Origin: Nitrospirota bacterium
GTDB taxonomy: Bacteria; Nitrospirota; UBA9217
NCBI GenBank assembly: GCA_963740085.1
Contig: CAVUCU010000004.1
Coordinates: forward strand, 706,011-770,010
DNA: 64,000 nucleotides
Direction: 5' to 3'
This document shows positions 26,737 to 60,873 of the stretch, piece after piece (position 1 is the first letter of the stretch; each line of letters starts with the position of its first letter). Under the pieces are notes generated by a model, which saw only the letters and a list, made by a program, of their open reading frames with translations, ran no database searches and was not told where the DNA came from. The position numbers were made by a program, and so were the translations under genes.

Positions 26737-26864
26737 AATAAATAAGCTCCTCTCCCGTTATAGAGAATACAGATACCGCACGCCCTGGCCTTCCCTTGCC
26801 GCAAAGGTTTGGTTTAATTTTACCACAGGAGAACACAGGGAGCGGGATATGGCCCATTTTTTTA

Positions 26865-27158
26865 TCTGCCGTTCCCCTGCGACGGGCAGCTCTGACACAA
26901 GAGACACGCATAGCAATGCTGCACAGATCATAGTTACAGGAACAAGACAAGGCAGACACACGCCCTGCACTCGCGACGTAGCACTCGTAAACGCTGGGTG
27001 CAGGCGGCCGGGCCCTGTTTTAAAGGGCGAGGGTGGAGTGACGCGAGTCCCGCATATCAGGGTGGAGGTACGGTACCTCTTCCCGTCATGCAAAGCCAAC
27101 CTCGAATGCTTCTATCGGGGGTGGCCGAATGATGAGCTGCCCAAAATAATCAATGCAC
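26865..27158 (+). ncRNA. Putative structured ncRNA/dispersed element, type A, full copy A1
   Basis: Near-identical to 28748-29000 and rc(56184-56448); GGGCAGCTC(26884)/GAGCTGCCC(27134) pairing with CTGA/ATGATGA K-turn; several hairpins. Confidence 0.65.
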
Positions 27159-28727: not shown

Positions 28728-28747
28728 TCAGCCGGTGCTGTTTTTGA

Positions 28748-29000
28748 TCTTGCCTTTTCCCTGCGCCGGGCAGCTCTGACGCGAAAGACGCGCATAGCAA
28801 TGCTCCACAGATCCTCGTTACGAGAACAAGACAAGGCAGACACGCCCTGCACTCGCGACGTAGCACTCGTAAACGCCGGGTGCAGGCGGCCGAGCCAGGC
28901 TTCCCGGGCGAGGGTGGAGTGATGCGAGTCCTGCATATCAGGGAAGAGATACTGTACCTGTCCGCCATGCTGCGCGGCCGCGTGATGAGCTGCCCAAAAA
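28748..29000 (+). ncRNA. Putative structured ncRNA/dispersed element, type A, full copy A2
   Basis: Direct repeat of A1; GGGCAGCTC(28768)/GAGCTGCCC(28987); CGCGCA(28789)/TGCGCG(28971). Confidence 0.65.
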
Positions 29001-29073
29001 GAACACCAACTCACTGAGTTTAAGCTGGGAGGTAAATCGAACAACCCAAATAAACGCGTGAAGGTCCTCTTCT

Positions 29074-35617: not shown

Positions 35618-36472
35618 ATGACAGGTAAGATCTCGCCGGATATCTCAGGTTATAAGACCTTATACAGGCTGTCGATCTATGTTGTGATCCTTGCCTGGAT
35701 CGTGCTCGGGCTCTATTTCCTGGTGTTCACGAAAGCGGAACACTCGTCAGCAGCGAAGATAGTACAATATTTTTTATCACCCGAACAGCTTGGAATAAAG
35801 TTCAGAACATTAATACTTCTCGCCCCGCTTATCCTTACCATTGTCAGCTATCTCATCTATGACCGGGCCAATCTTTTTCAGAAATCGATCGTCGCGGAGC
35901 AGCAATTGCGCATCCTCAAGGACGATCTCATCGTTTCGTTCGCGAACGCCCTTGACGCAAAGAGCTCCTGGACGCAGGGTCACTCGCAAAGGGTCACCTC
36001 CTACGCCCTCATGATCGCTGAGAAGCTCCATGTCAACGTCGAAGACCGGGAAACGCTCAGGATCGCGAGTTTACTGCATGACGTCGGGAAGATAGGAACG
36101 TATGATGTCATTCTTGACAAGCCGGGTCCGCTTACCGAGGAGGAATGGCACCTCGTCAAGCTGCACCCCGGCAAGGCCGAGGAGATCCTCAAACCGATAA
36201 AACAACTTCAGCATGTGCTGCCGATCATTAAATATCATCACGAGAGGATGGACGGGAAGGGATATCCGGACGGTCTTGCCGGAACAGAAATACCGCTATT
36301 GGCGAAAATACTCTGTCTTGCCGATTCCTTTGACGCCATGATCGAAAATAGACCGTATAAACGGGGAATGAGCAGGACCGAGGCCTACAGGGAGATCAAA
36401 GATAAAATGGATACGCAATTTGACGCGGTTGTTTCGACGGCATTCCTTAGCGCCATGGATACCGCGGAGTAA
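35618..36472 (+). CDS. Membrane-anchored HD-GYP domain phosphodiesterase
   Basis: 2 TM, GHSQRV, LLHDVGK, HHERMDGKGYP, ADSFDAM, RPYK. Confidence 0.9.
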   Translation: MTGKISPDISGYKTLYRLSIYVVILAWIVLGLYFLVFTKAEHSSAAKIVQYFLSPEQLGIKFRTLILLAPLILTIVSYLIYDRANLFQKSIVAEQQLRILKDDLIVSFANALDAKSSWTQGHSQRVTSYALMIAEKLHVNVEDRETLRIASLLHDVGKIGTYDVILDKPGPLTEEEWHLVKLHPGKAEEILKPIKQLQHVLPIIKYHHERMDGKGYPDGLAGTEIPLLAKILCLADSFDAMIENRPYKRGMSRTEAYREIKDKMDTQFDAVVSTAFLSAMDTAE

Positions 36473-36487
36473 TGATCCGCACTGATA

Positions 36488-36567
36488 CGCGTCAGAGCTG
36501 TCCGTCGCATGGGGAAGGCAAGATCAAAAATGCTTTACCCCCACCCTGCGCGTCCGCGGAGCGGCCC
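36488..36567. repeat. Truncated head-to-head A(-)/C(+) junction of the dispersed element family
   Basis: cgcgtcagagctgtccgtcgca..ggcaaga = rc of A 5' end; tcaaaaatgctttaccc...ggagcggcc matches 52821-52862. Confidence 0.7.
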
Positions 36568-44923: not shown

Positions 44924-45144
44924 TGCACCTTTCTTGATTCTGCAAGATCCGAGCGTCCGCTTAAGATCTGACTTATCTCTGAGTACTGCAAATCAGTATG
45001 TTCGGCAATTGCCCGCCGGATAAAATGGTCAAGCGCAGCTTCGAGAATATCAAAGAGAAGAGAGGAAGTCAAACAGTAAAGAGTGAGCTGCCCAATAAAT
45101 AGATGCAGGCGTGGTGACGTTGTTTCCCGCGGGGCATAATAACG

Positions 45145-48238: not shown

Positions 48239-48355
48239 TGTCTGCCTTATGATACTGCGGCGTTGTTCTCATTTCAAGAGCGGAATGCCAGAGGCAAACA
48301 GTTCTGCCGTTCCCCTGCGCCGGGTAGCTCTGACGCGAGAGACACGCATAGCAAT
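48239..48355. repeat. Truncated type A 5' end (+, 48303-48355) head-to-head with a degenerate B-like remnant (-)
   Basis: tctgccgttcccctgcgccgggtagctctgacgcgagagacacgcatagcaat; minus strand reads tttgcct...cattcc...aaggcagaca. Confidence 0.7.
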
Positions 48356-48446
48356 CAGGATGATAATTGGCAAATGGCAATAAAGAAGGCCGGATGATCA
48401 AAGGAGAACTTCAAAATAAGACCCGACCCTGCGATGTTTCGGAGAA

Positions 48447-49034
48447 CTACTCTATATCGGCGAAATCCCTTCTGACCGTTTCAATATTCTCACGGTATCC
48501 TGCCCCGTCCCCAAAATCGAGGAATTTAACATAACGATGATGCAGGGTCGTCATTTTGCGTGCATGTCTTATGGGGCACCAGTACTGCTCGGTCCTTCCC
48601 GCGATCTCCTGCGTATATGCGATCAAGCCGTTCACGTAGGCGCAGTACTGGCAGTTCACCTTCTCGATGATGTTCAGGTACAGCAAGGCATGGCGGTCAA
48701 AAATAATGAAGCCCTCGCGCTTCACTTTGGGGATCCCATAGATCGGGAAACAGATCGCCTGGAACAGGGTCATCATGAGGTCAAAAAGGAGTGCTGCGGG
48801 CAACACGGACCAGATGATCGGCGCGCTCAGGATCACCGGCCAGGTCGAACTGCGGATGAAAGGGATAATCTTCGCGACAAGGGCCTTCTGCTCGTGATGG
48901 ATCCATTCCTCGAAGGTGACCTTCTTGCCGAATACCTTATAGTAATACTCATCTTCCTTTTTCTGGATCTCCAGCGCGATCTCCTTCTCCAGTTCTTTCA
49001 TCCTCGCGACCAATATATGCAGCCTGCTTTCCAT
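48447..49034 (-). CDS. Hypothetical membrane protein (NCxYCxY...EQYWCPI motif)
   Basis: AAGGAG RBS; Cys motif; hydrophobic segment. Confidence 0.75.
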   Translation of the reverse strand: MESRLHILVARMKELEKEIALEIQKKEDEYYYKVFGKKVTFEEWIHHEQKALVAKIIPFIRSSTWPVILSAPIIWSVLPAALLFDLMMTLFQAICFPIYGIPKVKREGFIIFDRHALLYLNIIEKVNCQYCAYVNGLIAYTQEIAGRTEQYWCPIRHARKMTTLHHRYVKFLDFGDGAGYRENIETVRRDFADIE

Positions 49035-49305
49035 AAAATCAGCTCCTTACTTATTCTGTGTTGGAGAATGTTCCGGCAGCTGTTCCAGTCCTGGTCGCTC
49101 TTGAAGACTCTCTTCTTATCATTGCGCGGCCGAGTGACGAGCTGCTAAAAAAGGATAGATGCACATGGAACGGGTTGCCAACCTGGATAAGCTTCTGCAA
49201 ACAGATAATTCATGAAGATGAAGAAAGCGATACTCGCAATTAAGGGACCCCATGAAACCTGCCCCTGAGCGCCGACAAGTGGAATACAAAAAACCTTATT
49301 TTTTT

Positions 49306-51625: not shown

Positions 51626-51680
51626 GCATGCCTCCTTGTTGAACAATGTTAGGGTCAGGCGTTCACTCGCACCGAATTAC

Positions 51681-51760
51681 TGATCGTTGGGTAATGCATC
51701 TCCAGGTGAGCAGCTCTCTGCTGTTAAGTATGGCCGTATCTCTGTGCTGCATCCATGAGA
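51681..51760 (-). mobile_element. Decayed fragment of a transposase-like C-terminal HTH (copy 1)
   Basis: Translates LMDAAQRYGHT*QQRAAHLEMHYPTI; near-repeat of 54546-54625. Confidence 0.5.
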
Positions 51761-52749: not shown

Positions 52750-52819
52750 GTAACTATGATGTGCAGCATTGCTATGCGTGTCTCTCGCCTCAGAGCTACC
52801 CGGCGCAGGAAACGGCAGA
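52750..52819 (-). repeat. Truncated type A element (5' about 70 nt)
   Basis: rc = tctgccgtttcctgcgccgggtagctctgaggcgagagacacgcatagcaatgctgcacatcatagttac. Confidence 0.75.
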
Positions 52820-52820
52820 A

Positions 52821-53046
52821 TCAAAAAGCTTTACCCCGACCCCGCACGTCCCCGGAGCGGCCATTACACCCTGCACCCGAGGTTCCGCTCGTAATCCCTG
52901 CGCGCAGGCGATATTTTGGGCACCCGTCCTGGCCTAAGGAAGCGTCCCCTTGGGGCGAACGCGAAGTACTGCCTGCACCAGCGTTATCGCAAGAGCACGG
53001 TGTCTGAGGCCATAGGCCGGGTTTACGCGGGCGGGCGGTCCGCCCC
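52821..53046 (+). ncRNA. Putative structured element type C, head-to-head with A
   Basis: Shares ccctgcac..ctcgtaa..gcaggcg hairpin with A and hairpin-GGGCGA..AGT.CTGC core with A/B; 5' end recurs at 36524. Confidence 0.5.
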
Positions 53047-54491: not shown

Positions 54492-54545
54492 GTAAAAACC
54501 TCTCTTTGTTATTTTGGTGTCAGTCCATTCCTCGCCCGGGACCGC

Positions 54546-54653
54546 TGATCGCTGGGTAATGCACATCCAGGTGAGCAGCTGTCTGCTGTTGAGTATAGCC
54601 GTATTTCTGAACTACATCAATGATCTTTTTGTCTCCAACAAGGGGAATGTCAA
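54546..54653 (-). mobile_element. Decayed fragment of a transposase-like C-terminal HTH (copy 2)
   Basis: Translates GDKKIIDVVQKYGYTQQQTAAHLDVHYPAIS; 54620-54653 recurs at 60825-60858. Confidence 0.55.
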
Positions 54654-54726
54654 GCCACCGGACCGTAAAGGCTTTGCGTTGATGCGATGATGTGTGGATG
54701 CGTAGATCCGGGAACCGTGAAAAACC

Positions 54727-55900: not shown

Positions 55901-56183
55901 TTTATTCTCCTTCTTGATTAATCCCTGATGTCAGGATCCAACCACACCCTGCACTCGTTTATGGCCGCGTTTTTCGTTCTTTGCGGTGAACGCTTTGATA
56001 AGAAGGTGGTCCTTATAACAAATCGAATGATATATTTACCGCGGAGTCGCGGAGAATTATTGTTTCATAATAAAACCGGTTCTTCTGACTTTTCTGTGGG
56101 CCATTTAATTGCATGTATCGCTTTTTATTCTTCATGAACAATCTGTTTCCCGAATGTTATCTAAGTTGGCGCTTGTCCCAGGT

Positions 56184-56448
56184 GTGCATTGATTTTTTTG
56201 GGCAGCTCATCACTCGGCCACGCAGCATGCCGGGAAGAGGTACAGTATCTCCACCCTGATATGCAGGATTCGCATCACTCCACCCTCGCCCTTCAAAATG
56301 GGCTCGGCCGCCTGCACCCAGCGTTTACGAGTGCTACGTCGCGAGTGCAGGGCGTGTCTGCCTTGTCTTGTTCTGGCAACTATGATCAGTGCAGCATTGC
56401 TCTGCGTGTCTTTCGCGTCAGAGCTGCCCGGCGCAGGGGAACGGCAGA
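56184..56448 (-). ncRNA. Putative structured ncRNA/dispersed element, type A, full copy A3
   Basis: Reverse complement of A1/A2; compensatory CACGCA/TGCGTG versus CGCGCA/TGCGCG in A2. Confidence 0.65.
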
Positions 56449-56452
56449 ACTC

Positions 56453-56680
56453 TTTGCCTTTCCAGAAGCCCCTGCATTCCATGAACAGGTTCGCGCACAA
56501 GCATGCGCATGCTGACACGATCAAAAAAAGCACAAAGCCAGGCAGACACGTCCGAGCCCGTTCCCCCGGGCGAGGGGAAGTGCTGCGAGATGCTCGAAAG
56601 GCTTGTTATCAGTACCGGCAATCATGCCCTGCGCGAAGCTGTGAACTGGGGTGCAGAATAAAACAGGATCGTGACATGTG
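56453..56680 (+). ncRNA. Putative structured element type B, copy B1
   Basis: Repeat of 58754-58978; CTGCATTCCA(56472)/TGGGGTGCAG(56647) pairing; shares GGCAGACACG, CCGAGCC-hairpin-GGGCGAGGG, GTACC and CATGC..TGCGCG with A. Confidence 0.6.
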
Positions 56681-56774
56681 CTGAACCAGAAACAGATAAA
56701 AGCGACCCACACAAAACCCGGAAGACCGATAAAACTTTGAAGTATTGGTTTTAACAAACAAGAAAGTCAGCTTT

Positions 56775-58608: not shown

Positions 58609-58707
58609 ATCGACTTCTTCTCCTCACTCCGCTTACACAGGCTCGTGTTCCATAGCCATACTGCAAGGATAGCATATCCGGAAGAGATTCTCGGGATGTT
58701 CCGGCTC

Positions 58708-58749
58708 CGTGTCTCGCGTCAGAGCTGCCCGGCGCAGGGGTAAAGCAGA
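58708..58749 (-). repeat. Truncated type A element (5' about 42 nt)
   Basis: rc = tctgctttacccctgcgccgggcagctctgacgcgagacacg. Confidence 0.75.
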
Positions 58750-58753
58750 AATC

Positions 58754-58978
58754 TTTGCTTTTCCAGAAGCCCCTGCATCCCATGAACAGGTCCGCGCACA
58801 GCATGCCAATCTAGAAAAGACCGAAGATGCCACAAAGCCAGGCAAACACGACCGAGCCTGTTCCCCCGGGCGAGGGAAAGTGCTGCGATGATCGAAAGGC
58901 TTTGTTATCAGTACCGGCAATCATGCTCTGCGCGGTGTTGTGAACTGGGGTGCAGAAAATAAAAAGATCGTTACCTGT
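58754..58978 (+). ncRNA. Putative structured element type B, copy B2
   Basis: Repeat of B1 with compensatory changes (CCGCGCA/TGCGCGG versus TCGCGCA/TGCGCGA). Confidence 0.6.
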
Positions 58979-60668: not shown

Positions 60669-60873
60669 AAGAACTCCCTTCGATTCAATGATAAGTGTTT
60701 TCCATCAGAAAGCAGGCATGACAGGTTAAATTATAGCACCTTAATCTGCTGGAGAGCATTTGGGATGTTGATTATGTGTTGCGATGAATGACAATGCGGA
60801 GACAAAGCAAGGAGGGATGAGAAGATGATCTTTTTGTTTTCAACAAGGGGAATGCCAAAATAAAGGACCTGAC

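Follow-up and report, generated by a model that had tools for sequence, protein, structure and literature searches.

A dispersed family of structured, non-coding repeats in uncultured Nitrospirota that may be a selfish mobile element

The intergenic regions of a 64,000-nucleotide stretch of a Nitrospirota genome (the window; positions 706011-770010 of contig C4, in an assembly of 3.46 Mb and 7 contigs) contain copies of a structured non-coding element, type A, which had been predicted from the bare sequence as a free-standing unit of 250-290 nt. We show here that type A forms one unit type within a superfamily of lineage-specific, non-coding repeats (~165-260 nt per unit) and that this superfamily explains most intergenic repeats of the window. 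Because its fold is kept between lineages while individual copies decay in a near-neutral way, because its copies are unevenly and patchily distributed, and because their placement follows no host-gene logic, we lean towards regarding type A as a selfish, non-autonomous structured mobile repeat, comparable to the repetitive extragenic palindromic (REP) doublets called REPINs and to bacterial interspersed mosaic elements (BIMEs). [quoted passage not shown]

Each unit consists, in order, of a ~22-nt leader ending in CCCCUGCGCC, a 9-bp closing helix (P1), an invariant, GA-rich internal loop of CUGA opposite RYGAUGAG, a second long-range helix (P2), a third, the GCAUGC helix (P3), a class-specific interior, and a run of A residues. 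Units from other genera keep the leader, P1, the CUGA/RYGAUGAG loop, P2, P3, and the A-run. The interiors fall into at least five classes, each of which was seen in two or more genera, and a single genome may contain several of them; a hairpin termed P4 (GCAGC...GCUGC) is common to classes 1, 2a, and 4.

In order to survey the family, we built a covariance model (R1) from 22 cross-class sequences and searched it in 64 genomes of the class, the order here being both class and family; owing to a short calibration, the E-values of R1 are only approximate. The three full copies of the original prediction (A1, A2, and A3) are present in the window, are 85-89% identical to one another, and score 98-166 bits with R1. 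All of the fragments predicted to hold only the 5' end were found again by repeat finding, BLAST, or R1, and the proposed 3' scrap proved to contain the 14-mer of the 3' arm, with 2 mismatches, together with the tail that follows. The genome as a whole holds 16 full-length copies, most of them in a short form of ~208 nt, and 26 R1 matches, in line with the multi-copy claim. A two-arm pattern, GGGYAGCTCTGA...GATGAGCTRCCC, gave 14 matches in this genome and was present in 9 of the 64 family genomes, with 0 matches for the reversed control. As predicted, no open reading frame (ORF) is conserved, since indels of 1, 2, 5, ~26, and 46 nt between copies break all frames; Pfam searches with the 5 longest ORFs of the copies gave no match at E values up to 0.1, and a coding origin was rejected on both counts. 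All 16 full copies lie on contigs C1 and C4 (2.39 Mb) and none on C3, C5, and C7 (1.04 Mb), a placement that may stem from replicon structure, binning, or chance.

The element is confined to one lineage and is very unevenly distributed within it. BLAST searches were positive for 17 of 24 relatives belonging to the same family, compared with 0 of 16 genomes from ten other families of the phylum. R1 matches were obtained in 31 of the 64 genomes, representing 16 of 19 genera, with 0 to 34 matches per genome and more than 340 altogether; both extremes occur in the same genus as the window, with none in G008 (100% complete) and 34 in G001. A search for the 5' arm with up to 2 mismatches found matches in 16 of 63 family genomes, and outside the family it gave 9 matches in 8 of 337 phylum genomes, compared with 11 for the reversed control. 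An exact scan for this arm, using one genome for each of 185,579 species, returned 60 matches. Sixteen were in records not labelled Nitrospirota, none of them with a 3' arm; the others were in Nitrospirota metagenome-assembled genomes (MAGs), except for one MAG labelled otherwise but placed in this family. That MAG (G062) bears the depositor label Betaproteobacteria, carries typical copies, and is assigned to this Nitrospirota family by a genome search, so its label or its binning may be wrong. A distant-mode search of plasmids and phages with the composite element described below (656 bp) returned no match, and an exact 5'-arm match in viral contigs was dismissed as chance, as it lacked an R1 match.

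The predicted pairing of the two arms is borne out by covariation between classes and genera. Among 56 distinct class-1 copies, the 9-bp closing helix is 99.6% paired. The base pair proposed as compensatory is AU in 32 of these copies, GC in 23, GU in 1, and unpaired in 0, and the GCCC/GGGC hairpin compensates as well (GC 41, AU 13). P1 occurs as GGGCAGCUC/GAGCUGCCC, GGGUGGCUC/GAGCCGCCC, GGGUGGCUC/GAGCCACCC, and GGGCGGCUC/GAGCCGCCC. Its position 5 is A-U in 11, G-C in 6, and G.U in 2 of the 22 cross-class sequences; position 4 is C-G in 11, U.G in 9, and U-A in 2, and it is U.G in 39 of the 56 class-1 copies. Five of the seven P2 pairs vary between classes with pairing kept. Over the 21 arm pairs of the cross-class set, 7 have changed on both sides (shuffle mean 3.9, with 3 of 500 shuffles reaching 7), 91.9% of arm cells are paired (shuffles 87.8%), and the covariation score is 0.217 (shuffles 0.129, with 0 of 500 reaching 0.217), although the shuffle controls overstate significance because the sequences of a repeat family are kin. 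The stronger argument is provided by controls with slid partners, which score at most 0.121, and by the repeated, independent-looking states of P1.

Within the genus, the signal is much closer to neutrality: 93.6% of cells are paired in the class-1 copies compared with 92.3% in shuffles, and 6 pairs show double changes against a shuffle mean of 4.7, a value reached by 103 of 500 shuffles. Departures from Watson-Crick pairing include G.U in 51 cells of 16 pairs and A.C in 30 cells of 14 pairs, i.e. a mild G.U bias that is nearly strand-neutral. In the consensus, three pairs are G.U and none is A.C. These G.U pairs work on the plus strand only; this strand folds better in 19 of the 22 cross-class sequences and in 54 of the 56 class-1 copies. 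A class-1 consensus from RNAalifold that pairs CGCA with an internal UGCG was set aside because the cross-class comparison favours the P2/P3 rod. For the leader pseudoknot of the original prediction, UCUGCC with GGCAGA, a single compensatory difference separates classes (C-G to U-A), and this putative pairing competes with the P4 hairpin for GCAG.

The claim of a free-standing unit has to be revised, as the conserved repeat extends well past the predicted ends on both sides. In the copy A3, this extension is a composite element of ~650 bp, in which type A stands head-to-head with a second unit. The latter, known at first as type B and read here on the opposite strand as B', is a sibling of type A: type B sequences match R1 on their opposite strand at 24-65 bits, B' forms a rod like that of type A (z -3.35, a fold equalled by 1 of 200 shuffles), and it has a GGCAGACACG...GGGCGAGGG...GUGCUGC interior in common with type A, A3 and B' sharing the P4/H1 interior. 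The composite is thus a head-to-head inverted doublet. It looks like a MITE because it ends in imperfect terminal inverted repeats (TIRs) of 25 bp and is flanked by AT-rich target-site duplications (TSDs) of 8 bp, which read TTATTTTT, AATTTTAA, and AAAAGACT in this genome and CTTTTTTT in the congener G008; at the A3 composite, the flanks share GTTTTAT, a TSD match at 7 of 8 positions. This genome contains 8 near-full composites and 18 TIRs, and G001 contains 42 TIRs. The shell and its contents can be uncoupled: G008 has the same TIR shell with other contents and without type A, and type A occurs outside the shell in A1, in A2, and in other genera. The original prediction had overlooked this TIR/TSD nesting, as well as the sibling relation of type B and the separate hairpin insert described below. 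Head-to-head A/B' pairs are found in the window and in G009, G052, G053, and G054, and tail-to-tail pairs in G020 and G009.

Comparison with congeners and the TSDs of the composites support the suggestion that the element is mobile. The congener G003 lacks A1 at the orthologous site, where the flanks are 87% identical; relative to that site, A1 is a ~297-nt insert between CATTTTTT and CGTYCGTC, with no duplication. At the site of A2, a deleted remnant is left in G003. Because the A1 insertion lacks a TSD, type A can move or be copied alone, without target duplication. Many copies in the window and in the genome are truncated or interrupted, a sign of decay after insertion. In one of them, the interior is replaced by ~770 nt with a 195-aa ORF (48447-49034, minus strand).

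This ORF lies exactly between the 5' and 3' arms of type A, has a strong ribosome-binding site, and encodes a protein with a hydrophobic core and no Pfam match. It was rejected as a partner enzyme, being single-copy and present in 8 of the 64 family genomes without co-occurrence with type A. Two transposases were rejected as well. At C1:1497009-1499147, a MITE copy with a perfect 8-bp TSD (AAAAGACT) contains a ~1.55-kb insertion of the IS1111 type, which has subterminal inverted repeats of 13 bp and encodes a DEDD transposase of 395 aa. Its empty target, ...CTTCCTTAG|GCCAAGAC..., is present in two other copies, which identifies the IS1111-type element as an intruder rather than the parent, and its transposase as part of a nested insertion rather than a partner. 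The Y1 transposases of the RAYT type show neither adjacency to nor co-occurrence with type A, and R1 found nothing at the 4 Y1 loci in this genome.

The hairpin CCUGCACUC...GGGUGCAGG, which had been described as internal to the element, is indeed present in the window copies; it is, however, a separate REP-like module of 42-46 nt, carried by 5 of the 16 full copies in this genome and also found alone elsewhere in it and many times in other genera (e.g. G013, G009, G020, and G002). The module, also seen at C1:3192-3396 and C4:499563-499765, can interrupt other repeats in both orientations, and it adjoins no Y1 transposase in this genome. A1 carries the module and, in its 3' arm, a further inserted hairpin of ~26 nt. 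The latter is not specific to A1, as had been thought, and recurs in ~7 other copies from 3 other genomes.

We also examined whether the CUGA/RYGAUGAG loop is a box C/D kink-turn, as proposed. At the sequence level, the core of G.A, A.G, and U.U pairs and the adjoining Watson-Crick helix are there: in the 22 cross-class and 56 class-1 sequences, no variation is seen at G33, A34, G198, and A199, and conservation reaches 90% or more at U32 and U200. The C helix is not. The C-stem, with no more than 2 bp and 70.7% pairing over the classes, falls short of the regular C helix of a box C/D kink-turn, whose first pair (-1b.-1n) is Watson-Crick and adjoins a 3-nt bulge; 6 of 22 sequences have C.A as their -1 pair, and the -1n base is absent from 19 of 56 class-1 copies. 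The spacer after CUGA ranges from 1 to 3 nt, and the energy model favours a 3-bp CGC/GYG helix beside a 3x2 loop. Given the weak C-stem, the variable spacer, and the other pairing chosen by the energy model, a kink-turn is not established.

Searches for known RNA families agree with the view that type A belongs to none of them. No Rfam 15 family matched at its gathering score, either in the window or at 6 loci from other genera, and at E values up to 10 only chance-level lncRNA and snoRNA matches were returned, away from the element. Abstracts retrieved in a literature search contained no description of it. Nothing points to a ribozyme, contrary to one suggestion in the original prediction. 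A guide RNA of the IS110 type was rejected, as the sole adjacent DEDD transposase is the nested insertion described above. The gene context argues against a riboswitch or other cis-regulator, as anticipated, because there is no conserved class of downstream genes; 10 proteins flanking 7 loci in other genera are mutually unrelated (beta-propeller, flavin reductase, radical SAM enzymes, DUF1554, DEAD helicase, GDPD, and AFOR).

How, then, might such a repeat spread? We suggest that the single-strand rod formed by the plus strand would be a requirement of a mobilising or copying machinery, with RNA or single-stranded DNA as the presumed carrier of the fold. Only copies with an intact fold would multiply and, once inserted, they would decay almost neutrally. 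In this genus, type A would travel mainly as a MITE passenger moved in trans by a cut-and-paste transposase, and it might also insert alone without target duplication; any effects on neighbouring transcripts, such as stabilisation, termination, or protein binding, would be secondary. Several observations weigh against this reading. No mobilising enzyme was found: no long TIR pair in this genome encloses a transposase of its own (one contains the nested IS1111-type element), the TIR pairs inspected in G001, G004, and G008 for an autonomous insertion sequence with the same ends are all MITE-sized (480-800 bp), and this genome has no match to the TnpB-type (TNB) domain, which also upholds the earlier statement that type A is not an omega RNA. 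Transposases of the Y1 type occur in 54 of the 64 genomes whether or not these carry the element, and they are lacking in G009, G022, G005, and G062, which have 19, 26, 14, and 4 R1 matches. The TSD-less solo insertion was seen at one locus only, and the kinship of the sequences inflates the shuffle statistics. The fold energy of a copy from this genome is not exceptional (z -0.96, compared with -2.40 for a class-3 copy and -3.35 for B'). Finally, the conserved GA/AG/UU loop, the GNRA-like loops, and the G.U pairs would fit a functional RNA equally well.

This last point leads to the main alternative, which we consider unlikely though by no means negligible: a genuine non-coding RNA family, trans-acting or serving as a scaffold for a ribonucleoprotein (RNP), whose conserved basal rod, with its kink-turn- or k-junction-like GA loop, binds a protein and whose class-specific interior provides the function, one class having merely been captured and multiplied by the MITE in this genus. 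At least 9 genera share an invariant GA/AG/UU core and leader despite their different interiors, P1 and P2 show compensatory changes, the consensus G.U pairs work on the plus strand only, and GNRA-type loops as well as the P4 hairpin shared by classes 1, 2a, and 4 are what such an RNA could display. This genome also encodes an L7Ae-family protein (C1:39177-39443), at threshold level only (22.5 bits; cut-off 22.1). A hairpin with a T-run behind the unit in G020 and G009 looks like a terminator; however, this resemblance arises because two identical tails meet there in inverted orientation. The patchy distribution, the very uneven copy numbers even within a genus, the many broken copies, and the weak C-stem of the would-be kink-turn also speak against this alternative, as do the lack of a conserved upstream promoter, the flanks being different from copy to copy, and the lack of a conserved gene neighbourhood. 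A bolder version, in which the units are true RNAs forming a mobile family of RNP scaffolds, the kink-turn- or k-junction-like rod recruiting a protein and the at least five interiors acting as specificity or guide domains, appears quite improbable; if true, this would be a novel sort of mobile element, guided or templated by RNA and lacking a protein gene in cis.

The structure might also be functionless. A variable interior is enclosed by the arms, which together make up an imperfect inverted repeat of ~45 nt, and if these arms were the TIRs of an inner transposon that co-evolve under double-stranded binding by one protein, with the interior as neutral filler, they would mimic base-pair covariation; the near-neutral variation within the genus would fit such a case. 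We nevertheless regard it as very improbable, because the 3-nt asymmetry and the GA/AG mismatches are kept in every class although double-stranded end recognition would have no need of them, the P1 intermediates are G.U rather than A.C (U.G at position 4, and a passage via G.U at position 5), the leader and the A-run are on one side only, and A1 has no target duplication. Least probable of all, in our estimation, is a cis-acting transcript element (a terminator, an insulator, or a stabiliser of 3' ends, similar to REP sequences and BIMEs) that is retained for its benefit to neighbouring operons. All copies are intergenic, A2 starts 19 nt after the stop codon of an FGGY-type kinase gene and lies directly behind it, the rod is stable (fold energies of -60 to -90 kcal/mol), and arrays with alternating orientation are BIME-like. 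Yet the orientation relative to neighbouring genes is inconsistent at the loci examined, and close relatives differ by gained and lost copies without any evident effect.

Table 1 Units, fragments, and associated elements of the repeat family in the window.
Feature	Position	Strand	Evidence or remarks
Type A copy A1, solo unit	26862-27150	+	R1 98.3 bits
Type A copy A2, solo unit	28746-29003	+	R1 153.9 bits
Type A copy A3, within composite element	56192-56451	-	R1 166.3 bits and alignments
5' fragment of type A	36427-36525	-	R1 20.9 bits
5' fragment of type A	52753-52822	-	R1 30.1 bits
3' scrap of type A	45082-45107	+	End of closing helix and start of tail
Type A copy with replaced interior	48300-49243	+	5' arm 48300-48355; 3' arm and tail from ~49120
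REP-like hairpin module (42-46 nt), in A1	26963-27004	+	
REP-like hairpin module (42-46 nt), in A2	28845-28886		
REP-like hairpin module (42-46 nt), in A3	56311-56352		
Sibling unit B' (type B read on opposite strand)	56450-56664	+	R1 30.5 bits, E 2e-8
Composite MITE-like element, ~650 bp	56078-56728	-	Left TIR, B, A, tail, right TIR; TIRs at 56704-56728 and 56078-56102
Truncated second doublet	58685-58963		5' end of A 58685-58752 (-) joined to B' 58751-58963 (+); R1 29.5 and 24.2 bits; direct repeats D3, D5, and D6

Other repeats were encountered next to these units or in similar settings. A dispersed module (...CCATGCGAAAATTT...GAGTTTCCGAAATGTACCGAGGACGACCGAGCATG...) is common to several genera, occurring at C4:499300-499900 of this genome, in G020, and in G008, where it fills the TIR shell instead of type A. 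Weak R1 matches at G004:C3:15024-16523 and G004:C12:2035323-2036390 lie in tandem arrays with a period of ~426 nt, which may be arrays of the A/B type. Heptamer tandem repeats (GTAGGAA and GAACCCT types) are located directly beside type A or B units in G020 and at C4:386700-386750. Within the window, a family of 25-nt direct repeats (AAAAAGACCCGACCC...TGTTT) has four copies at gene ends (22751, 24233, 48415, and 53661) and may be a terminator-like motif, and two pairs of direct repeats are unrelated to type A: 51646-51758 with 54511-54623 (113 nt, 78% identity) and 54620-54664 with 60825-60869 (45 nt, 82% identity).

In summary, this work adds a well-defined family of large structured repeats, with up to ~30 copies per genome, to a poorly studied class of uncultured Nitrospirota, along with a covariance model and a definition of the parts of a unit, from the leader through three long-range helices and a GA loop to the class-specific interiors and the A-run. 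It provides a worked example of units nested in MITEs that are in turn invaded by small repeats and by an IS1111-type element, and it warns annotators and those who search for RNA motifs that selfish repeats can yield strong covariation. Should the units be transcribed and bound by protein, they would constitute a new bacterial RNA class with a kink-turn-like core; should they move as folded single strands, the mobilising enzyme would be worth finding.

With respect to known systems, the likeness to box C/D RNA lies in CUGA opposite RYGAUGA, which gives G.A, A.G, and U.U beside a Watson-Crick helix. In type A, by contrast, the arrangement is reversed, with the helix on the terminal side (P1) taking the place of the non-canonical one, and there is neither a guide nor a box C'/D' layout. 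A small GNRA-capped stem may lie on the non-bulged strand, which would recall a k-junction (PMC10573300). Resemblance to the bridge or seek RNAs that guide IS110 and IS1111 elements is limited to one type A copy ~400 nt downstream of the IS1111-type DEDD transposase gene; all other copies are without a nearby transposase. The composite shares with MITEs its 25-bp imperfect TIRs, its 8-bp AT-rich TSDs, and its non-coding nature (PMC10969869), and it likewise has tens of copies and several internal variants; it differs in that no autonomous partner was found for it. Type A itself is a passenger module, whose arms form inverted repeats like those of a MITE but whose copy A1 has no TSD.

A close parallel is with REPINs and BIMEs, the REP doublets and mosaic REP clusters of proteobacteria, which are built from units of ~35 nt. 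Type A units measure ~200 nt, fold into a rod of several helices with class-specific interiors, and have no link to RAYT/Y1, whether by adjacency in this genome or by co-occurrence over the 64 genomes. Like REPINs and BIMEs, they are dispersed intergenic repeats that fold as single strands, with conserved arms and a maintained hairpin, that occur as inverted pairs or alternating arrays of homologous units, and that are distributed patchily by lineage. In kind, the element is a new form of the known dispersed structured repeats rather than a new category.

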